DNA of 33,262 nt from the IMG/VR virus record IMGVR_UViG_3300037483_000150, positions 1 to 33,262 of that record; one strand, written 5' to 3'. Shown in pieces: positions 1,562 through 33,262 of the stretch. Position 1 is the stretch's first letter. Each line of letters begins with the position of its first letter. The stretch comes from a virus. Lineage: Duplodnaviria; Caudoviricetes. Below the pieces are notes generated by a model that saw only the letters and a program-made list of their open reading frames with translations, did no database searches and was not told the DNA's origin. The position numbers and the translations under genes are program-made.

Positions 1562-1592
1562 CAAAGGGGTGTCGATTATGAACATCCCTTTG
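1562..1592. terminator. stem-loop after ssb, candidate (bidirectional) terminator
   Basis: CAAAGGG-GTGT...ACAT-CCCTTTG inverted repeat between convergent transcription units. Confidence 0.45.
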
Positions 1593-1612
1593 GCTATGCT
1601 CTGCTTGACGTG

Positions 1613-1790
1613 AATCTCTAAGGCTTCAACCGGTGAAATACCCTCCACCAAATGACTACGTCATTCTGGTTGGGGCTTCATCCGACCCACTCTAGCATGC
1701 TAGAGCCTTTTGGATGCAACACTGGTACCGACAGTATAGTCACACGGGTTCACATTACAGATATAGCATTTCCTGCCACCACAGTACGGC
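1613..1790 (-). ncRNA. putative TnpB omegaRNA/reRNA-like RNA of element B; predicted guide CGGUUGAAGCCUUAGAGAUU from 1632 leftwards
   Basis: Successive hairpins (TCTGCC..GGCAGG; ACTG..CAGT; CATCC..CTCTAGCATGCTAGAG..GGATG; right-end hairpin) downstream of a promoter. Guide position inferred from TnpB biology. Confidence 0.4.
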
Positions 1791-1888
1791 AGAAATAATA
1801 ACACAAGGAGCTGGGTAAGTGCAAATAAACGCTATCCATCGCCACCCAAACGCTACGCGTTTTGGATGGAGAATTCCGCTTACGTTAA
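1633..1888 (-). mobile_element. non-autonomous IS200/IS605-family mini-element (PATE/MITE-like), element B; left boundary uncertain by a few nt
   Basis: Minus strand: left-end hairpin CCATCCAAAACGC-GTA-GCGTTTGGGTGG (within 1835-1870) and a related right-end hairpin GAAGCCCCAACCAGAATGAC-GTA-GTCATTTGGTGGAGGG followed by TATTTCAC (TCAC = 1636-1633). Both hairpins have a GTA triloop. No credible ORF inside. Confidence 0.6.
1795..1824 (-). promoter_or_regulatory. sigma70-like promoter inside element B
   Basis: TTGCAC-N18-TATTAT with extended -10 TGn on the minus strand. Confidence 0.5.
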
Positions 1889-1895
1889 TGAAAGG

Positions 1896-2600
1896 TTAAA
1901 CAGGATTCTCTTGCATTGCTCCGTTGTCAGTCCTTTTGACATTAATTCCCATGCTCCTTATGGATTCCATTGCTTTCTTTCTTGCTTCGTCCGACTTTGG
2001 CTTGTCTGCTGGATGCGCCTCTGCCTTCTCTGGCAATGCTCTAGGTATTATCTTCAACTCACCATCGATGAACTGCCTTAAAGCAATATCGTAATAGGTT
2101 TTGAATGTCTTTTTAGCGTTATCAATTTTCATTTCCCTATAGGTTGATGGGCATATTTGACCTATTGCGTGCCGGATAACAGCGTCAACACGGTCATCAT
2201 TGTGCCTATAATCTGAAAACTGAATATTCATTTTGATTGAGATTAAATAGGCTTCCTCTGTTGATGGAAAACCCAAATCTTGAGGGGATGGTTTACACCA
2301 TGCTATAAACTCACCGGGCGTAGGAACAAAGGGCTTTTCCATCAAATAACATTTGTTTAAAGCATGCTGTAGCTGCTCGATTCGGTTTATGCCAGATAAC
2401 ACAAACGCTTTTAACCATGTCTTTTTAGCTTGGTTATAGGTTTCCGTGTCAGGCCATGCTTGTTTAAATGCGGTAAAGTTGCTGCGTAGCTCTTTGAATA
2501 GCCAGTTAATGACCTCTGCGCTTTCTTTTGTTGGTAGCTCCATGCGCTCTTTCTCACTCTTAATTTGCGTTAGGTCAATTAAATTTGAGATATGCTTCAT
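1896..2600 (-). CDS. lambda P-like replication protein (helicase loader)
   Basis: IN.LF..L...F.A..QAWP, K..W..AF...GI....Q and PF.P.PGEFI.WC motifs. Lies directly downstream of the O-like gene with ATGA overlap. Confidence 0.85.
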   Translation of the reverse strand: MKHISNLIDLTQIKSEKERMELPTKESAEVINWLFKELRSNFTAFKQAWPDTETYNQAKKTWLKAFVLSGINRIEQLQHALNKCYLMEKPFVPTPGEFIAWCKPSPQDLGFPSTEEAYLISIKMNIQFSDYRHNDDRVDAVIRHAIGQICPSTYREMKIDNAKKTFKTYYDIALRQFIDGELKIIPRALPEKAEAHPADKPKSDEARKKAMESIRSMGINVKRTDNGAMQENPV

Positions 2601-3349
2601 AAGCTCACCCCTTCAATCCATGAGGTGTCTGTATCGTCGTATTCCTGTGATTTAGGTTTGACTACGGCTAACTGAAATACTTTTGGCTTGCTAATTTCAT
2701 CGTTCCATAATTCTTTGCGAAGGTATTTTGGACCATGTGGGTTAAACCCTCTTATCCATTGGTCGTCTTCTGATTTCTGAATCTTAAGTTTTTCAATTAT
2801 CTCTCGTCCTATTTTCTCAAGTCCGTTTTTCTTCCATATTTCTAGCGATTCTTTGCGTTCTTTTTTAGTTGGAAATAACTTCCAAAACTCCTCAAATAAC
2901 ACATAAGGGGTTTTCTTAGATTCTGGGATCTTATCTTCTGGGATCTTTGGGTGTCTCTGGGAGACACTGGGTGGTGTCTCTGGGAGACACTGGGGTGGTG
3001 TCTCTGGGAGACACCCCTCATCTTCGTCTTGAATAATTATTGGTTTCTTTTTGGTGTTCCAAATGTACTTTCCTTTCTTTACTTCGGTATGTTCAATGTA
3101 TCCTTTATCGATAAGAATCTTTGCCATCTTCATGGCGTTACGCCTGTTTATCCCTAATTGCTCACCAAGCCACGCATAGGAAAAGGTTGCGTTTACCTTT
3201 GGATCAGGATTTGATTCCATTTGTTCTATTTGCCCATATAGGCGTAAATGATTAGCATTAAGGTCTAAGTCGTAGAGGATATAAAAGGGTATTACTGCGC
3301 GATAAGGTGTGAATCTTTGCGAGTCGTTGTTGTTATCAGACGGATTCAT
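2597..3349 (-). CDS. replication initiator, lambda O-like (start re-assigned to ATG 3349)
   Basis: N-terminal winged HTH (SYAWLGEQLGINRRNAMKMAKILIDKGYI), internal iterons and C-terminal FEEFWKLFP..K / P....YL....W.DE domain. AGGA SD before ATG 3349. Confidence 0.8.
   Translation of the reverse strand: MNPSDNNNDSQRFTPYRAVIPFYILYDLDLNANHLRLYGQIEQMESNPDPKVNATFSYAWLGEQLGINRRNAMKMAKILIDKGYIEHTEVKKGKYIWNTKKKPIIIQDEDEGCLPETPPQCLPETPPSVSQRHPKIPEDKIPESKKTPYVLFEEFWKLFPTKKERKESLEIWKKNGLEKIGREIIEKLKIQKSEDDQWIRGFNPHGPKYLRKELWNDEISKPKVFQLAVVKPKSQEYDDTDTSWIEGVSL
2921..3014. repeat. putative replication origin: three palindromic iterons plus two short repeats
   Basis: GTGTCTC-TGG-GAGACAC exact at 2951-2967, 2974-2990 and 2998-3014. 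TTCTGGGATCTT at 2921-2932 and 2936-2947. All lie inside the O-like gene, as for the lambda ori. Confidence 0.8.
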
Positions 3350-3538
3350 GGTTATAATTGTCCTAAGAGTTTGGATGCTCGTGCCGTTACTTGCCAAACA
3401 TGGCATCCGGTTGTACCTAGAATAATTAGCTAACTTGGCGGTGAGTAATTATTCAACTTATTTAGTTCCCATGCTGGGGACAATGATTGTAACCAGCAGT
3501 TAACTTTCAGTAATTATGCCTCACAATAGAAATCGAAT

Positions 3539-3829
3539 CTACTTATTCACCTTCCTAAAATACCCAACAGCTTCGATATCAACACTATTTGCACCACGCA
3601 GCACACTGATAAGCCGACTATAAACCAAGTCACAGACTGATTTGTCATGGTGGAAGTAAGAAAACGAGAAATGACTAAATATCTTATACCCATCAATGCG
3701 CCAAACAGGCTCACCAACATCATTGAGAACATGCTCTCCTTCCTCTTCGTATTTAACCCAAAATCCAGTGGTGTCAAATATCCCTTTGTGTAACGCCCTG
3801 CTTCCTTGTAATTCAAATTCAATTATCAT
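3539..3829 (-). CDS. hypothetical phage protein
   Basis: 96-aa ORF in the cro-O-P operon, overlapping the upstream stop. Confidence 0.6.
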   Translation of the reverse strand: MIIEFELQGSRALHKGIFDTTGFWVKYEEEGEHVLNDVGEPVWRIDGYKIFSHFSFSYFHHDKSVCDLVYSRLISVLRGANSVDIEAVGYFRKVNK

Positions 3830-4004
3830 TTAAATCCCCGTAATGTTTTTTCATAAACTCCGTTATCATCACATATAGTTCATTATCAGCAATCATCAGT
3901 TTTTTCTCATTGCAACATAAATAAAAATCAAACCCATCGCTTTCAATGGATGCCTTATGACCATCGCAACTTCTAGTTACTAAAGCTATTCTGCTTGTAT
4001 TCAT
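3819..4004 (-). CDS. hypothetical phage protein
   Basis: 61-aa ORF, ATGA-coupled within the operon. Confidence 0.55.
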   Translation of the reverse strand: MNTSRIALVTRSCDGHKASIESDGFDFYLCCNEKKLMIADNELYVMITEFMKKHYGDLNDN

Positions 4005-4210
4005 TGCGGCACGTCCTCACCCATTTCTCGCACTTGCTCGCAAAGATTTTCTTCGCGCCATTTGTCTTCGCCCTGAATAACAGCCTCGGTTATCGCGTCC
4101 GCAAGCTCACCCATATTGCTGTAATTCAAGCCCTTATCCCTGTACGTTACAAGAACACCCATAACGTGGTTTCGTAAATAAATATCCCTATCTAAAATCG
4201 CCATTATCAT
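4001..4210 (-). CDS. hypothetical phage protein
   Basis: 69-aa ORF, ATGA-coupled to the cro-like gene. Confidence 0.6.
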   Translation of the reverse strand: MIMAILDRDIYLRNHVMGVLVTYRDKGLNYSNMGELADAITEAVIQGEDKWREENLCEQVREMGEDVPQ

Positions 4211-4404
4211 TCCTTCGTTGGTTGAACGTCATCTTCTTTTCGAGCCTTGAAAGCACCTTTGGTCTTGTCCTGAATCAATAATTGCGTAGAGTAAGGAATT
4301 GATCCGCGCTTTCTCCAGTACGTTACGCCACTTTGAGATATTTTAAGCTCGTTGGCAACTGCCATCCACGTACCCAATTTGTCCTTTAATTCTTGTAATG
4401 TCAT
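4207..4404 (-). CDS. Cro-like HTH transcriptional regulator
   Basis: 65 aa, basic, GTWMAVANELKISQSGVTYWRKRGSIP...Q..I...T.G...A pattern. First gene of the operon leading to O/P. Confidence 0.8.
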   Translation of the reverse strand: MTLQELKDKLGTWMAVANELKISQSGVTYWRKRGSIPYSTQLLIQDKTKGAFKARKEDDVQPTKE

Positions 4405-4434
4405 TTGCCCACCTTATTTTGTTGTCAGTATTAG

Positions 4435-4469
4435 TTGACAAATATAATATATAATAGGACAATATGCAA
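4435..4469. promoter_or_regulatory. overlapping divergent sigma70 promoters
   Basis: Plus strand TTGACA(4435)-N17-GACAAT toward the recE-like gene. Minus strand TTGCAT(4469)-N17-TATATT toward cro. Confidence 0.55.
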
Positions 4470-4493
4470 GAACTAAATTAGGAGACAACCGCC

Positions 4494-5318
4494 ATGACAC
4501 AATCGTTGGGAATTTTTGACCTAACTAATGCGCAGTATCACGCGAGCGAAGGATTGTCGCGTTCAGGCTTATGGACGTTTAAGCAATTACCGTACAAATT
4601 TTGGTATGAAAAGATAAGTGGACAATATGAGCCACCAGGCGATAAAGAAGCATTCATTTTAGGTGATGTGGTGCATGCTATGACCTTAGAGCCTGATACC
4701 TTTAACGACCGATACATGGTAATGCCAAACATTGATAAGCGAACTAAATCAGGCAAAGAGCTGTACGCGCAGGTAATGCTTGAAGCTGGCAACAAAACGC
4801 TGGTTAAGCCTGAGACTATGGATTTAGCCCATGATATGAATCGAGCCTTGATGGGTAATTCGACCGTTTGCGACTTGCTGCGCGATGCCAAAATGGAAAA
4901 ATCAATCTACTGGAAGCATGAGGCGACTGGATTAATCTGCAAGGCTAGGCCGGATATATGGCAAGGTCGAATTGTTTCAGACCTTAAAACGACCATAGAC
5001 GCAGGTTTTAGAAGCTTTCAGGCGTCAGCCTATAAGTATGGGTACTTCTTACAGGCTGCTATGCTCTATGAGGCTCTCAAGAGCCTTGGAGAGCCATTCC
5101 ATAATTTCGTTTTTATCTGTATCGAGAAAACAAAGCCACATGCCATCGGATTGTACATGCTCGACGATGATGCGCTACAGTTTGGTATTGATATGTTTCA
5201 CGCATTAATGGAGCGTATCGCAATTTGCTACGATAAAAATGTTTGGCCTGATTATGGGATCAGCAAATTAACCATACCTAAATACGCAACAATTGACGAG
5301 GGATTTGAGAATGAATAA
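4494..5318 (+). CDS. RecE/exonuclease VIII-like PD-(D/E)XK nuclease (DUF3799-type)
   Basis: N..YHA..GLS.S.L, G...H...LEP, IDKRTK.GK, E.SIYW....TG..CKARPD, DLKTT and YGY..QAA.Y-like motifs. Confidence 0.88.
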   Translation: MTQSLGIFDLTNAQYHASEGLSRSGLWTFKQLPYKFWYEKISGQYEPPGDKEAFILGDVVHAMTLEPDTFNDRYMVMPNIDKRTKSGKELYAQVMLEAGNKTLVKPETMDLAHDMNRALMGNSTVCDLLRDAKMEKSIYWKHEATGLICKARPDIWQGRIVSDLKTTIDAGFRSFQASAYKYGYFLQAAMLYEALKSLGEPFHNFVFICIEKTKPHAIGLYMLDDDALQFGIDMFHALMERIAICYDKNVWPDYGISKLTIPKYATIDEGFENE

Positions 5319-5664
5319 AGAAAATACATTTAGTAATTTGGCTGTATGGTGTAAATCATACTATGAAAAAACAAAACTAAAAGTTCATCCTAGTAGTGTT
5401 CCTGTTGAGTTAGTGCTTGAAGACGTTCTTGGATATGTAGCCATTTTATTGGCACATGACAAAGGAATGGCCACGGCCTTTGACGCGCTAAACGTCAGAG
5501 TTAAAGACCTTGAACTTTTGGTTCATCAATTAACGGAGCAATTGGTGACTGAAAATGCGGACAAAGAAATTAGCTCTATTTCTGAAGAGCGTTATGTTCC
5601 TATTGAAATTGATGAAAAATCCGGCATTGTGAAAAGCATAACTACTAAAAAGGTGAAGAAATGA
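5311..5664 (+). CDS. hypothetical protein (start probably ATG 5311)
   Basis: ORF between the exonuclease and the annealing-protein candidate, overlapping both. Confidence 0.6.
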   Translation: MNKENTFSNLAVWCKSYYEKTKLKVHPSSVPVELVLEDVLGYVAILLAHDKGMATAFDALNVRVKDLELLVHQLTEQLVTENADKEISSISEERYVPIEIDEKSGIVKSITTKKVKK

Positions 5665-6530
5665 GCAACGAATTACAAAATATGGGATTTGAAAACAAGC
5701 AACAATCAAACAATTCGATGATGAATGTTTCAGAATCAAGAGCGGTAGCAGAAGTTCAGGCGGCTTATGTGATTGCAAAAAAGTTTCCAAGAGACGAGAA
5801 TGCCTCCTACATGCGCATTATGAAGTCGTGTGAAAGGCCGTTTTTAGCTGAACAGGCTATGTATGCCTACCCTAGAGGCGGTCAATTAGTTACTGGCCCA
5901 TCTATCCGTTTAGCAGAAGAGTTGGCGAGAAGCTGGGGAAATATAGATTGTGGCGTTAGAGAAATAAGTCAGGAAAATGGCATGTCAGTTGCAGAAGCAT
6001 ATGCGATTGATCTTGAAACCAATACGCGAGTGGTTAAAACATTTCATGTTCCTCATAGTAGAGATACTAAGCAGGGAAAGAAGCGATTAACTGATTCAAG
6101 AGATATTTATGAGTTAGTTGCTAACCAAGGCGCGAGGCGTTTGAGGGCGTGTATTTTAGGCGTTGTTCCTGGTGATGTAGTGGACGCAGCAGTTACTAGA
6201 TGTGGCAAGACAATGGAATCAAGTGATATTCCAATGGCCGATCAGATCAGAAAATTGGTCATGGCCTTTGATGAAATCGGAGTTAAAACGGAACACATAG
6301 AGAAGCGGTTAGGCCATAAACTCGATGCTACAATCCCTCAGGAAATCGTTACTTTGAGAGGGATTTATAAGTCTATCAAGGATGGTATGGCAGATAGAAG
6401 CCAGTTTTTTGATATTTCTAGTGTGAAAGGTGAATCAGCGCGAGCTGAGCTACTGGACGCAGTAGGCAAAAATAAAAAGGAACTGGAAATTGAACAACAT
6501 AAAAAAATTGAAGATACAGAAAGCGTTTAG
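5661..6530 (+). CDS. probable single-strand annealing/recombination protein (partner of the RecE-like nuclease)
   Basis: AVAEVQAA..IAKKFPRD, Y.YPRGG..V.GPSIRLAE and DLETN motifs typical of phage proteins next to RecE-like exonucleases. Function inferred from context. Confidence 0.6.
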   Translation: MSNELQNMGFENKQQSNNSMMNVSESRAVAEVQAAYVIAKKFPRDENASYMRIMKSCERPFLAEQAMYAYPRGGQLVTGPSIRLAEELARSWGNIDCGVREISQENGMSVAEAYAIDLETNTRVVKTFHVPHSRDTKQGKKRLTDSRDIYELVANQGARRLRACILGVVPGDVVDAAVTRCGKTMESSDIPMADQIRKLVMAFDEIGVKTEHIEKRLGHKLDATIPQEIVTLRGIYKSIKDGMADRSQFFDISSVKGESARAELLDAVGKNKKELEIEQHKKIEDTESV

Positions 6531-6542
6531 AAAAGACTTTGA

Positions 6543-6600
6543 AAGGGCATTGAAATTGATTGACGATGCCCTTACGTCCGCGCTCTCAAAGTGAGCGCGG
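6543..6600. terminator. tandem stem-loops between convergent genes
   Basis: AAGGGCAT...ATGCCCTT (6543-6573) and CCGCGCTC-N7-GAGCGCGG (6578-6600) followed by TTTGTT. Confidence 0.55.
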
Positions 6601-7155
6601 TTTGTTACGCCATTTCTTGGCAATTCGGTACACAGTAGCTTCACCGATCCCCATTTTTTTAGCTATCCAGACTTTGGAAACTCCGGTTTCCAAATAAGTT
6701 TCAACCGTGTAGACAATTTCAGTAGGCAAAGGCTTTCTGCCTCCGTACTTCCCATTCTCCTTCGCTTTCGCAATTCCTTCTTTCTGCCTCTCAAGCATAA
6801 TTTCACGCTCAAATTCAGCAAACGCGCCCATCATGGTAAGCATAACCTTTCCTGCTGCTGTTCCTGTGTCTATGCCCATCGTAATGATTTGTAAATTGAC
6901 TTTTTTCTCGTTGAGTATATCGACTATGCGGTATAAATCAGGCACTGATCGTGCTAATCTATCCAGCTTGGTGACTATCAGCGTATCGTCCTCTCGAACG
7001 AACGCCAAAGCTTTATCTAGACCATCTCTCTGCTTTACCGCTGATGCGTGTTCTTGAAATATTTCATCACATCCAGCGGCCTTTAAATCCCTTAATTGTG
7101 CCTCAAGTCCTGCTAATTGATCGATGGTCGAAGTACGTGCGTACCCGACCTTCAT
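6586..7155 (-). CDS. small serine recombinase (resolvase/invertase family)
   Basis: N-terminal GYARTST catalytic motif, KLDRLARS, AEFERE...ERQKEGI..AK..G.YGGRKP and C-terminal HTH (IAKKMGIGEATVYR). Confidence 0.95.
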   Translation of the reverse strand: MKVGYARTSTIDQLAGLEAQLRDLKAAGCDEIFQEHASAVKQRDGLDKALAFVREDDTLIVTKLDRLARSVPDLYRIVDILNEKKVNLQIITMGIDTGTAAGKVMLTMMGAFAEFEREIMLERQKEGIAKAKENGKYGGRKPLPTEIVYTVETYLETGVSKVWIAKKMGIGEATVYRIAKKWRNKPRSL

Positions 7156-7176
7156 AATTTACCCCTTAGTGTTTAT

Positions 7177-7498
7177 CAGGCATGGCGTAAAACCTCGGCC
7201 TTCAGGCCGGGGATGTAAGCCAGCGCTCTTGATTTTTTGTTTTTTTCTGTTAACATATTCTTTCCTTAATTGGACTATGGTCAGATAGACCAAAAGTAAA
7301 GCGTGTGGAGAGAATGTGAGACCTGGGGGATATGAGTTGACTCATAGTCGTAAAAATCCCCATTGTGGGATATTTACGGCGAAAACCAAGCTTAAATCCC
7401 CTGGGCAGTCTTGTTGAATCACGAACCCTCCGAAGTGTATTAGATGAAAGTCTATTCACCGTAGGAATCCCCGCCCTAAAGGGCGGGGAGGATGTCAA
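7177..7498 (+). mobile_element. non-autonomous IS200/IS605-family mini-element (PATE/MITE-like), element A
   Basis: Left-end hairpin CCTCGGCC-TTCA-GGCCGGGG (7193-7212) in CATGGCGTAAAA...GATGTAAGCCA context. Right end GGAATCCCCGCCC-TAAA-GGGCGGGGAGGATGTCAA (TCAA 7495-7498). Preceded by TTTAT (7172-7176). No transposase or TnpB ORF. Confidence 0.8.
7229..7256 (+). promoter_or_regulatory. sigma70-like promoter inside element A
   Basis: TTGATT-N16-TAACAT with extended -10 TGn, directly upstream of the structured RNA. Confidence 0.5.
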
Positions 7499-7518
7499 GT
7501 TTAGCTCCGCAATTACTT
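7263..7518 (+). ncRNA. putative TnpB omegaRNA/reRNA of element A; predicted guide GUUUAGCUCCGCAAUUACUU from 7499
   Basis: 5' hairpin TGGTC-AGATA-GACCA, then GCGTGTGGAG...GTGAGAC...GTCTTGTTGAATCACGAA, resembling the tnpB 3' pattern GCCTGTGGAG...GAAGCAGGAA (from memory) with a compensatory CGTG/CACG pair. Nested hairpins and the right-end hairpin follow. Confidence 0.65.
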
Positions 7519-9569: not shown

Positions 9570-9668
9570 TAATATTTAAACAGCTCGACACTAATTTTAT
9601 GTGATAGGACTAGGGTATACTATGTCTGATTATATTAATAATCGGATTTATCAATAGGGTGGGGTATG
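9570..9668 (+). repeat. 99-bp perfect inverted repeat, left copy
   Basis: TAATATTTAAACAGCTCG...TAGGGTGGGGTATG is the exact reverse complement of 33164-33262. Confidence 0.95.
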
Positions 9669-9673
9669 GCACA

Positions 9674-10009
9674 ATGAGTGATTTTGAAACACGCAATCAA
9701 GAAGCATGGGATAAAATTAAAGCTGAGAAAGAGATTCAAAGAAAACTCAAAATAGAAGCTGGTATATATGTTCCTCCAAGGGATGTAGAAATATTTTGTC
9801 AATATCTTGAAGATTGTGCTCTTGAAATAAGTCACACAGAATTAAATATAAGATACCTGGCTGAAATGTGCGGTACTCTTATTCAAAAAGTAGAAGAGTT
9901 TTGGAATGAGCAAAATGAAAAAGCAAAATTAAAGCCCATTAAGGAACCCAATTTTGAACAGCAGCGTGGCGTGTCCGTTCTAGTCGATACAAATCCAACT
10001 AGAGAGTAG
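9674..10009 (+). CDS. hypothetical protein (start probably ATG 9674)
   Basis: ORF 9659-10009 in the track. MSDFETRNQ start follows the GGGTGGGG tract at the end of the inverted repeat. Convergent with terL. Confidence 0.6.
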   Translation: MSDFETRNQEAWDKIKAEKEIQRKLKIEAGIYVPPRDVEIFCQYLEDCALEISHTELNIRYLAEMCGTLIQKVEEFWNEQNEKAKLKPIKEPNFEQQRGVSVLVDTNPTRE

Positions 10010-13584: not shown

Positions 13585-15585
13585 TTACACAATTGTTATA
13601 TTACCTATTGATGATATAACAGTAAAAACAGTATCGGCAGTCGTACAAACCATTTCAAGCACATCAAAAGCGTTAGTTGAAGCAACACTACCTCCTACAC
13701 CAACGGTACTAGAATCGCTTCCCATCTGAATATTCTGCCCTGCATTTTGGTCTATTTGCCAACCGCCAACACCTTTTCCAACTACGTTAATTACTGTTCC
13801 AAAAGCAGCAGTTGTGGGCAATGTAAACGTCACCGTTCCTGCATTATTTGCCACATAGCCACTATCGGCAGTCATGGCTTGTGTTGTTCCTGTAACCTCA
13901 GTCCACCCAATGCCTGAACCAGTACCTGCAATTGTAATTCCACCTGCACTTTCAGCTATAGATATTCCTGCTCCAGCCGTCAAGGTTGCTGCAACTGGTG
14001 TTCCACCAGTAACACCTATTATTATCTGGCCATCGGTCATTGAAGCGGTCATTGCAGGAACACCAGATGCGTTAGTCACAAGTAACGCACTATTGGCTGT
14101 TGTTAAACCCTCAACAGTGTTTGCACCGTTAGAATATAATAATTCGCTCGCATCATAAGTGTCCGCATAAGTAGCTGTAGTAAACCCAATCTGTGCAGCA
14201 CCGTCAGTTTTTAAATGCTGGTTAGTTGTGCCATCGGCTTGAGGCCATTTAAGCCCGTCAAGAATTAAGTCTCCCGTTGTATCAGGCGTTAGATTTATAT
14301 CGCCAGCCGTATCAGTACTTGTGATGGAATTACCATCTAGTCTTAGATTATCTACATTAAATTGTCCAACTAGTGTTAAAGTTCCAGCTCCATCTGTAGT
14401 AAATCCAGGATCACCATCAAGAGAGCCAGAATTATTATATTGGATCTCGGTGTCACTTCCCCCCGCTCCGCCGGCAGTAGCGGCAATATATGCAACAACT
14501 GATTCACTTGTAGGTATATTTGAATCAGTGGCCGTTGCCATAGTGTCATCATCAATAATAGAATCAATAACCGTAGAGGATTGAATAGTCATTGTTCCAG
14601 GAAAATCAAGCGTGCTGGATAAAGATACTACAGGATTTGACGCATCCGAAGAATCAACATCAATCTGATTTGCTGTACCAACAACTGTATCGACAACACC
14701 GCCAGATAATTGATCCCATTCTGTAGCTTCGTATACCTCTAAAGCTTGAATGGTTGTATTGTATCTAACCATCCCATCAATAGGCGATCCAGGGCGTTCT
14801 GCCGTTGTTCCTTTAGGTGGGATCATTGACTCTGTTCCTGGCAATACAGGATTATCAGCAATACCAATTGTTGGATTTCCACCTGCACCTGTGCCATTAG
14901 CAATGTCTATTTCATCAGATGTACCTGTAATCGTTCGTACTGCTTGAATGCCCGTAGTTGTTGTGTTGTATACAAACCCTGTAGCAAGCGCACCCATAGC
15001 TTGAGCATTTGGTAGTTCTGAATTAGCTACTTGTAGAATATACGTCGCATCATCTGGTGCTAACCCACCACCAGCAGGTACATTGTATGCAATAATTTCA
15101 TCATTAGCATTGTTCATTGCCCACACTTGATTGGCTGTGAGAATTGGTAGAACCTCATCTTTAGTATCGATGGTTGCTGATACGTTATAGCCTGGATTAA
15201 CAATGGTGTCATACATCTGAGCTTGCTGATCAACTAAGGTTAAAATACCAAAGTCCTGGTTAAGCATACTGGGTGTAAAGTTTACATTTTGATAAAGATT
15301 CATTCTTGTTGGCGGTGTATTTCTGACTATTGTAATAACGTCATCTGCATCTACTCCTGATAGGAAAGTCACTCGAACCGTATGACTTCCTCCAACAAAA
15401 GTTACATTGTAAAGGCTAGGACTTACCAACTGGGTCACGTCATCAGCCTCTACGCCATCAGCGCGTCTGTACACGTCAATATCTGATGCGGCATCGGCAG
15501 TATATAATGTATTAAATACAGTCTGACCAGCACTGGCTATTATTTGTTCTCTAGGGGTAATATCATCAATCACAACCTGAACCAT
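13585..15585 (-). CDS. tail fibre protein
   Basis: T7 gp17-like N-terminal anchor (PR.Q..A.AGQTVF...Y, ITI.R, LN.DF..LT...QQ) followed by T/G/D-rich fibre modules. Confidence 0.85.
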   Translation of the reverse strand: MVQVVIDDITPREQIIASAGQTVFNTLYTADAASDIDVYRRADGVEADDVTQLVSPSLYNVTFVGGSHTVRVTFLSGVDADDVITIVRNTPPTRMNLYQNVNFTPSMLNQDFGILTLVDQQAQMYDTIVNPGYNVSATIDTKDEVLPILTANQVWAMNNANDEIIAYNVPAGGGLAPDDATYILQVANSELPNAQAMGALATGFVYNTTTTGIQAVRTITGTSDEIDIANGTGAGGNPTIGIADNPVLPGTESMIPPKGTTAERPGSPIDGMVRYNTTIQALEVYEATEWDQLSGGVVDTVVGTANQIDVDSSDASNPVVSLSSTLDFPGTMTIQSSTVIDSIIDDDTMATATDSNIPTSESVVAYIAATAGGAGGSDTEIQYNNSGSLDGDPGFTTDGAGTLTLVGQFNVDNLRLDGNSITSTDTAGDINLTPDTTGDLILDGLKWPQADGTTNQHLKTDGAAQIGFTTATYADTYDASELLYSNGANTVEGLTTANSALLVTNASGVPAMTASMTDGQIIIGVTGGTPVAATLTAGAGISIAESAGGITIAGTGSGIGWTEVTGTTQAMTADSGYVANNAGTVTFTLPTTAAFGTVINVVGKGVGGWQIDQNAGQNIQMGSDSSTVGVGGSVASTNAFDVLEMVCTTADTVFTVISSIGNITIV

Positions 15586-15586
15586 T

Positions 15587-16288
15587 TTAGACCTCCTGTC
15601 TCCATCGCCGCTTAGCTGCTTCGGACATTTTTAATTTAGTTTCTTCTGACCAAGGCTTTCCTTTATTATGTGCTGTTCTCCCTTTTGCAGCCAGCGACAT
15701 TTTTAACTTGGTTTCCTTGGAATTCTTTCTTCCAGTATTGTGTTCTTGTAATTTTTTCATTAATCCTAAAGGACGTTTTTTCCCAGTGTTAACAAGTTTT
15801 GCAGCTTCACATAACTTTTTTATTTTATCTTGGTCTTCCATACAAAGAGCCTTAGCAGCCTCAGATAATTTCATCCGTGTTTCTTCTGAAACTTTCTTTC
15901 CTTTTTCAGAGGCAGAAATCCTGGCCTTAGTTACATCGGAAAGTGGCCTTCGTTTAACTTTTTTTGCCGACTCAGACATCTTCTTTTTGGTTTCTTCTGA
16001 TGGCAATTTTTTATCGCCTCCAGTATTTAAATTATAACCATTTGGAGCCAAGGACTGTTTTTGTAAAATTAAAGACGTTTCCGCTTTGTTTGCCTCTTCC
16101 AATGTAAGACCTTTAATTAAAATTTCTTTTTTAAAAGCATCCCATCCATATTTAATTATTGCTAAATAGATTGCTGTATTTCTTGGGCTTGAATTATGAG
16201 CCTTCATTCTTCGTTCAAAATTACACGTCTGTCCAATATACCTTTTGCCACTTGGTGAAGTAAGCATATATATACAATATTCTTTCAT
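15587..16288 (-). CDS. free-standing GIY-YIG homing endonuclease with NUMOD3 repeats
   Basis: CIYMLTSPSGKRYIGQT..F.RR...H, AI.KYG..AF, GYNL..GG, then five SEET(K/R)xK(M/L)S.A-like repeats. Confidence 0.92.
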   Translation of the reverse strand: MKEYCIYMLTSPSGKRYIGQTCNFERRMKAHNSSPRNTAIYLAIIKYGWDAFKKEILIKGLTLEEANKAETSLILQKQSLAPNGYNLNTGGDKKLPSEETKKKMSESAKKVKRRPLSDVTKARISASEKGKKVSEETRMKLSEAAKALCMEDQDKIKKLCEAAKLVNTGKKRPLGLMKKLQEHNTGRKNSKETKLKMSLAAKGRTAHNKGKPWSEETKLKMSEAAKRRWRQEV

Positions 16289-32964: not shown

Positions 32965-33166
32965 GTTCTTTAAAGCAATCCCTATGCTGAAATGCTTCTG
33001 AGAGGTTTACTTCATGGAAGCATATTCCGCATACAACCATTGTTAGGGTTTTGCTGGAAGGTGTTACTACATATCCGGCAGGAATCCATTTGTGATACGG
33101 CTCAAATCCTTCTGCCGCTTTTGGGCATCGTGACGCTTTCAGATTCCAATCATCGCAATTTGACAT
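32951..33166 (-). CDS. small Cys/His-rich protein (possible zinc ribbon)
   Basis: 71 aa, CPK...H.W...CGIC. Its ATG is the last codon of the inverted repeat. Confidence 0.55.
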   Translation of the reverse strand: MSNCDDWNLKASRCPKAAEGFEPYHKWIPAGYVVTPSSKTLTMVVCGICFHEVNLSEAFQHRDCFKEPKSE

Positions 33167-33262
33167 ACCCCACCCTATTGATAAATCCGATTATTAATAT
33201 AATCAGACATAGTATACCCTAGTCCTATCACATAAAATTAGTGTCGAGCTGTTTAAATATTA
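33164..33262 (-). repeat. 99-bp perfect inverted repeat, right copy (runs to window end, may be longer)
   Basis: Exact reverse complement of 9570-9668. Confidence 0.95.

Follow-up and report, generated by a model that had tools for sequence, protein, structure and literature searches.

How do two transposon-like cassettes that encode no protein persist in one phage genome, and is their RNA still kept for a purpose? The question is raised by the Caudoviricetes record IMGVR_UViG_3300037483_000150, all 33,262 bp of which form the window analysed here. An initial annotation described two unrelated elements in it, each made of end hairpins, a σ70 promoter and a densely folded non-coding segment, and proposed that both supply guide RNAs (omegaRNAs) to the nuclease TnpB, either as an RNA-only homing system with borrowed TnpB or as a decoy of host TnpB- or TldR-type effectors. 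We conclude that the two elements (designated E1 and E2) are unrelated, protein-free IS200/IS605 mini-elements, i.e. palindrome-associated transposable elements (PATEs), which are probably selfish, moved by the transposase TnpA and retained by TnpB, both acting in trans. As far as sequence comparison can establish it, both have IS200/IS605-type ends, target motifs, autonomous relatives and homology to known omegaRNAs, and E1 in addition displays covariation and mobility.

E1 occupies 263 bp of the minus strand (1895-1633) next to the target TTTAA, and E2 exactly 322 bp of the plus strand (7177-7498) next to TTTAT; the span 1613-7518 originally delimited takes in the 20-nt guide flanks of both. 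The left end of E1 was set at 1895 on the strength of the family alignment, where 12 of 16 distinct loci have TTTAA immediately before this end and differ in their outer flanks, so that the earlier size of ~256 bp had to be extended at this end, while that of E2 was exact. The architecture had otherwise been read correctly: the end hairpins with their terminal TCAC and TCAA are present, and E1 and E2 share no BLASTN similarity beyond 7-mers. Neither 3′ flank repeats the target, that is, there is no target duplication. The hairpin-foot tetranucleotides (AATT/TTAA and GAAG/TCAC in E1; AAAA/TTAT and GAAT/TCAA in E2) fit the cut sites under what we take to be the IS608 scheme of guide/cleavage-site pairing. 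That the phage encodes neither protein also held, with 0 matches to PF07282 as the mark of a TnpB gene and a best E of only 1.3 in tblastn searches of the phage genome with parental TnpA and TnpB.

The descent of both elements from IS200/IS605 transposons, as initially presumed, is borne out by parents with tnpA and tnpB that have similar left ends. The order-wide genome searches scored three DNA candidates per genome and left 2-3 genomes unscored, and their counts are lower bounds. The closest relatives of the elements lie in one order of Gammaproteobacteria, reached through the metagenome-assembled genome (MAG) G001; we presume a Legionellales-like order, which is a guess only. For E1, a pattern scan of viral sequences gave two matches, one due to chance and the other a complete IS605 element in another phage (L004); a second complete element (L006) came from the genome scan, in a gammaproteobacterial MAG. 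Both have divergent tnpA and tnpB, NCBIfam confirms TnpB in both and an IS200 transposase for L006 TnpA, and by inspection the D-E-D catalytic motifs of the parent TnpBs are intact. E1 matches occur in at least 8 of 203 genomes of the order, including full-length protein-free copies in G050 (83% identity) and G057 (81%) and a shorter, internally deleted copy in G208. These copies sit between unrelated chromosomal genes, and the family occupies four different sites, which shows that the form without proteins can move and is not confined to phages. G050 and G057 also hold left ends followed by tnpA sequence, and G057 a TnpB C-terminus and several left ends at contig edges. No further E1 copy was found in viruses (interior pattern, 0; GenBank phages, 0), and three metagenomic runs gave no cover of a cognate parent beyond the phage's own left end and one 38-nt piece of tnpA, which is no proof of absence. 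A plasmid match to the E1 left end (L001) belonged to another family and was set aside.

The E1 RNA looks selected, because all changed interior pairs stay paired and the promoter retains its hexamers across a drifting spacer. In a comparison of four PATEs with three parents, 14 of the 37 pairs carry double changes and 95% of cells are paired, compared with 35-53% for slid partners, a level of covariation reached by 1 of 500 shuffles; these seven-sequence numbers are inflated by relatedness and by the prediction of structure from the same sequences. More telling is the comparison among protein-free copies, made on 36 interior pairs of 52 after 14 right-end and two invariant pairs were left out. 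Between E1 and G050 ten pairs have changed and all ten are kept paired, six of them through double changes; between E1 and G057 nine have changed and all nine are kept paired, seven through double changes. A predicted pseudoknot, in which the 5′ loop pairs with the 3′-terminal bases of the scaffold, reads GAAA/TTTC in the three full PATEs and GACA/TGTC in three parents, and is lost from the deleted G208 copy; its position is that of the pseudoknot in ISDra2 (PMC10097598). A model built from PATEs only finds the parental tnpB ends in G001 and G057 (E 2-3e-4).

The promoter hexamers stand 17-19 nt apart in five of five protein-free relatives or relics, compared with 13-14 nt in four of four tnpA-bearing parents, whose hexamers are located at the antisense tail of tnpA or within it; the E1 promoter seems to have arisen by re-spacing of two hexamers already present in that tail. 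Between phage and bacterial copies the spacer is identical at only 4-5 of 15 positions, with both hexamers kept. The σ70 promoters with an extended -10 that were originally assigned to both elements exist as sites with 8/12 matches and an upstream TG, which fall below the threshold of a strict scan (0 promoters in either region); conservation backs the E1 candidate, and the E2 candidate is known from one copy.

These data bear on the simplest alternative, in which both elements are inert passengers, moved as DNA by TnpA, with a fold inherited from a tnpB-bearing ancestor and no cognate TnpB in the phage's host. Such decay does occur: the G208 copy is internally deleted, and G205 holds a relic without the ends. 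The searches also brought up no close parent that codes for TnpB with either RNA type, and E2 is a singleton. Double compensatory changes have nevertheless arisen between protein-free copies that share one deletion architecture, in helices that TnpA does not need, and the hexamers have outlasted the divergence of their spacer. We consider inert passengers rather unlikely.

The G205 relic consists of an E1-like promoter and RNA core without IS ends in the leader of a cold-shock-domain gene (csp; L122, 234-375, minus strand). Different omegaRNA-like relics lie upstream of the csp orthologue in two other genomes (L128, L129) and two genomes have none, which suggests a hotspot or repeated exaptation. 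A captured host csp leader was rejected as the source of the E1 interior, as the orthologous leaders in G204 and G208 lack the relic. A cis-regulatory exaptation could also be read from the relic, and from the placement of E2 21 bp before the start of a resolvase gene in the opposite orientation, with a terminator-like site on the E2 minus strand: E2 would damp the resolvase by antisense transcription or termination, and E1 would form the 3′ end of the O-P operon. The recurrence of the same RNA fold at unrelated sites points instead to a position-independent function, and the csp orthologues of G204 and G208 do without the relic; we give this possibility hardly any credence.

E2 has its relatives among other elements. 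Its ends match in at least 19 of 204 genomes, among them tnpA+tnpB elements that we take to be IS609-like (the matched records carry insQ labels), and BLASTN aligns its right end with tnpB 3′ ends on plasmids and phages. One E2 frame still reads as what is presumably the C-terminal tail of TnpB ('ACGE-VRP'-like). A model built from E2 alone (R3), run on 66 loci mostly picked for E2-type ends, returned nine omegaRNA matches (E 2.7e-8 to 5.2e-6), one protein-free and eight behind tnpB, several of the eight being near-identical copies. In the matches, changes on both sides of the 5′ hairpin and of stem 2 leave these helices intact, and the model skips 64-78 positions of stem 3. In E2 this stem is a hairpin of unusual stability (z -5.5, 0 of 200 shuffles), and the extension is inferred to sit where the dispensable, flexible stem 3b of ISDra2 lies. 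Read from this single sequence, E2 could form the same kind of pseudoknot as E1, the loop AGATA being able to pair with TGTC, with one G-U. An alignment of E2 with the IS609-like parents by MAFFT was misaligned by the extension and not used. In Rfam the right end of E2 best matches HgcC (E 0.0017; 30.7 bits against a gathering score of 50) and E1 matches nothing, so that no curated family reaches its gathering score for either element; the test is weak because the omegaRNA of a tnpB-bearing parent (L086) is likewise without a match at E ≤ 1. The E2-only model finds canonical TnpB omegaRNAs at E values down to 3e-8.

A second copy of E2 was found neither with viral patterns (0) nor on plasmids (0) nor with R3 in 151 genomes (0); BLASTN of its interior gave only 19-36-nt matches, in at least 11 of 204 genomes, and the four matches of a metagenome pattern were all chance on inspection. 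When E2 is removed in silico, a 36-codon open reading frame (ORF) is restored whose end lies shortly ahead of the resolvase start, so that E2 has been inserted into the junction of two genes. At three loci (L066, L074 and L078) IS609-like ends form solo head-to-head palindromes, two right or two left ends being fused; these are probably core-deletion relics.

Protein-free copies are not rare among viruses. Of 27 viral loci with an E2-type left-end motif, 15 have tnpB downstream, three have tnpA only, three end too soon, one has an ORF missed by the queries, and five are protein-free, with the right end 162-354 nt away. The five (L028, L034, L035, L036 and L045) are further protein-free IS605 mini-elements on viral contigs, with long, unfamiliar interiors in L028 and L034. 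This survey bears on the proposal that the phage has domesticated the cassettes, keeping them to cut rival phages with borrowed TnpB or to titrate host TnpB or TldR. Two independent intact cassettes within 33 kb, at sites that spare essential genes, would suit such a use, and PMC11870625 describes TnpB driving insertion-bearing plasmids over empty ones, so that a phage pool could behave alike. Yet both elements keep full mobile ends, whose loss would be expected under domestication; most of the E1 family is chromosomal; five of the 27 viral loci are protein-free too; E1 and E2 are both missing from L005, the only related phage inspected; a short ORF is broken by E2, which also cuts off the resolvase from the genes upstream of it; and the family TnpBs have no known anti-phage role that a decoy would counter. 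We regard domestication as very improbable, and nothing was found in favour of the decoy function suggested initially. Because the E1 family occupies unrelated chromosomal sites, selection on its RNA predates the phage and does not need it. Homing with borrowed TnpB, the other function proposed, remains plausible as an instance of the published PATE and stand-alone omegaRNA model (PMC10055086, PMC10691335), whereas the chromosomal copies and the viral survey speak against a system evolved by the phage.

With up to two mismatches, the E1 guide matches in 3 of 206 bacterial genomes (control, 0) and the E2 guide in 2 of 206 (control, 5), none of the matches being preceded by the target-adjacent motif (TAM), and the best self-target in the phage shares 8 of 12 seed bases. 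No TAM-flanked match was found in the 206 genomes or the phage; the only predicted target of each element is its own vacated site. The E1 3′ flank (1610-1632, minus strand) resembles a hairpin-less copy of the element's own right end, with a second TCAC at 1613-1610; TGAAGCC followed by TTCAC within 15 nt has this spacing nowhere else in the genome, and the other E1 family copies lack such a right-end copy in the flank. An older relic or a partial duplication may account for it, in which case the true guide would be displaced.

With selfish, trans-served PATEs as the favoured explanation, the elements probably entered the phage from a bacterial host by means of host TnpA, which would peel them out and insert E1 behind TTTAA and E2 behind TTTAT. 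Transcription from the promoter within the element or, for E1, read-through out of the P operon would then yield an RNA of scaffold and flank. This RNA would load TnpB made elsewhere, TnpB would cut the TAM+flank junction left by excision, and recombination with an intact copy would restore the element. What is selected would be the element's capacity to keep itself in place; where the phage genome is present in many copies, this reaction would also lead to the conversion or exclusion of co-infecting empty alleles, as a side effect and not as a phage adaptation. A bolder and unlikely version makes both cassettes RNA-only gene drives in the phage population, in which host TnpB cuts, and thereby converts or excludes, co-infecting phages with empty sites, the E1 promoter having been made from tnpA debris and the ~75-nt extension of E2 being a functional add-on that tunes TnpB capture or out-competes the host guide.

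Several observations weigh against the favoured explanation. The dense folding initially ascribed to both elements holds for E2, which is far more stable than its shuffles (z -5.6, 0 of 100), but not for E1 (z -1.25, 21 of 200 shuffles; scaffold alone, -1.1), the structure of E1 being argued from covariation instead. The covariation in turn uses structures that these sequences themselves served to predict, and full PATE copies number only three. The E1 scaffold has diverged from the omegaRNA of the sampled parents (A2 mean column identity 71%), so that the sampled TnpBs may not load E1 RNA, and a search of G050 with the L006 query found no TnpB. Stem 3 of E2 is of another omegaRNA type than that of its IS609-like parents, where R3 reaches a best E of 0.079. 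Selection on RNA and promoter after gene loss, originally claimed for both elements, is evidenced in the E1 lineage only, because E2 is a singleton.

The relatives with empty sites that the homing proposal had called for were likewise not found: an empty phage allele turned up neither among viral and bacterial relatives, none of which was close enough to show a scarless insertion, nor in the contigs of the three runs. The P-like protein has one viral relative at 44%, and at least 1 of 203 bacterial genomes has a P match, at 29%; the RecT-like protein gave no viral relative. The assembled contigs, which drop rare variants, contain no joint that skips E1 or E2. Run X1 may be the source sample; run X2 holds a few identical 151-nt pieces at low share, too short to bridge a junction; and two joints in run X3 link E2-like ends of other organisms.

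The window around the elements (Table 1) encodes SSB, a lambda-P-like protein, Cro, an exonuclease, a resolvase, RusA, a GIY-YIG protein, capsid and portal. The hairpin between the convergent ssb and P genes is likely a terminator and would end an E1 transcript. In a related phage, the full tnpA+tnpB parent of E1 (L004, 2487-4319) lies beside a csp gene and a P-like gene, and csp follows the P-like gene in both L004 and L005 (L005, 7776-7988), the place taken by E1 in the window. The top phage relatives of the resolvase are DNA invertases. A reading of the resolvase and E2 as one IS607 element was rejected: the resolvase, of invertase type, lies outside the left end, and its C-terminal helix-turn-helix (HTH) is not the layout of IS607 TnpA.

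Table 1. Positions of E1, E2 and adjoining features in the 33,262-bp window
Feature	Position	Strand	Remarks
E1 target/TAM TTTAA, outside element	1896..1900	-	Stop codon of the lambda-P-like gene formed by the last three bases
E1 left end with subterminal hairpin (1879-1830)	1830..1895	-	89-93% identity to tnpA+tnpB elements L004, L006, L017, L018
E1 candidate σ70 promoter	1795..1824	-	TTGCAC-18-TATTAT, TG upstream of -10
E1 omegaRNA scaffold	1633..1787	-	5′ hairpin, three interior helices, predicted pseudoknot to 3′ end; from alignments and covariation
E1 right-end hairpin and terminal TCAC	1679-1633	-	Within scaffold 1633..1787
E1 predicted guide (3′ flank)	1613..1632	-	Guide role presumed from TnpB biology
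E2 target/TAM TTTAT, outside element	7172..7176	+	TTTAT shared by 11 of 13 bacterial loci with this left end
E2 left end with subterminal hairpin (7184-7221)	7177..7232	+	93% over 61 nt to IS609-like tnpA+tnpB elements
E2 candidate promoter	7229..7256	+	TTGATT-16-TAACAT, TG upstream of -10; single copy
E2 omegaRNA scaffold, derived from tnpB 3′ end	7276..7498	+	Right-end hairpin (7464-7498), terminal TCAA
E2 extended stem 3	7318..7412	+	95-nt hairpin, ~75 nt longer than its counterpart in matched omegaRNAs; searches gave no homologue
E2 predicted guide (3′ flank)	7499..7518	+	Predicted from position
Lambda-P-like replication gene	1896..2600	-	Family match; same strand as E1, directly upstream
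Serine resolvase/invertase	6586..7155	-	Catalytic domain first, HTH last; start 21 bp from E2 left end
Hairpin between convergent ssb and P genes	1562..1592		Seen in sequence; putative terminator

Three further features lie farther off. A 107-nt inverted repeat (97%) joins 9570-9676 to 33156-33262, the extreme contig end, with 23.5 kb between the copies, and together with the Hin-like invertase could mark an invertible block or an assembly end at the repeat. A free-standing GIY-YIG/NUMOD3 homing endonuclease (15587-16288, minus strand) amid virion genes makes a conventional protein homing element in the same phage. Beside it, a tail-fibre-like protein (13585-15585, minus strand) has a weak match to the Pgp3 N-terminal domain (E 8e-6, slightly below the cut-off).

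PATE omegaRNAs served by TnpB in trans are already published (PMC10055086, PMC10691335), and because this general kind is both published and frequent, the phage offers a useful test case, not a new system. What the two elements add is the covariation at the level of a lineage, the promoter re-spacing and the enlarged stem, and this added value is modest. A literature search that covered few subscription papers turned up no paper in which an omegaRNA element lacking proteins was put to an experimental test in a phage. E1 provides comparative evidence that a stand-alone RNA and its promoter stay under selection after gene loss, and with its full-length tnpA+tnpB relatives it allows RNA-only homing with borrowed TnpB to be tested directly and with little effort, co-resident replicons included; E2 illustrates the size of insert that a stem of a TnpB guide RNA may accommodate.

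PATEs were defined in Haloquadratum (PMC3119063), and those of G. stearothermophilus often encode omegaRNAs that need TnpB in trans (PMC10055086). Like them, E1 and E2 have near-terminal palindromes, no terminal inverted repeats and no transposase, a conserved target oligonucleotide outside the left end, and ends in common with autonomous elements; unlike the PATEs described there, they are gammaproteobacterial families found in a phage, with covariation and promoter re-spacing in the protein-free lineage of E1 and a long extension of stem 3 in E2. Stand-alone OMEGA omegaRNAs work in trans, their biological role being given as unknown (PMC10691335); for E1 and E2, by contrast, the putative effector would be on another replicon, in the host or another phage. 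As in the ISDra2 omegaRNA (PMC10097598), the loop region of a 5′ stem is predicted to pair with positions -5 to -3, followed by stem 2, stem 3 and a right-end stem ahead of the flank guide; unlike there, no tnpB overlaps the RNA, and E2 carries ~75 nt extra at what anchored motifs suggest is stem 3b.

E2 shares its left end, right end, last interior hairpin and TTAT-type target with IS609-like IS605 elements (insQ/tnpB), from which it differs by the lack of ORFs and by a stem 3 of the GTAAGAC...GCAG type seen in other TnpB RNAs. Finally, in the TnpB plasmid gene drive (PMC11870625) and with free-standing phage homing endonucleases (PMC13565253, which lists homing against co-infecting phages or plasmids for OMEGA systems), cutting of the empty allele favours the insertion-bearing replicon, as it would for E1 and E2; those systems encode their nuclease in cis, whereas E1 and E2 are protein-free guides carried by a phage.

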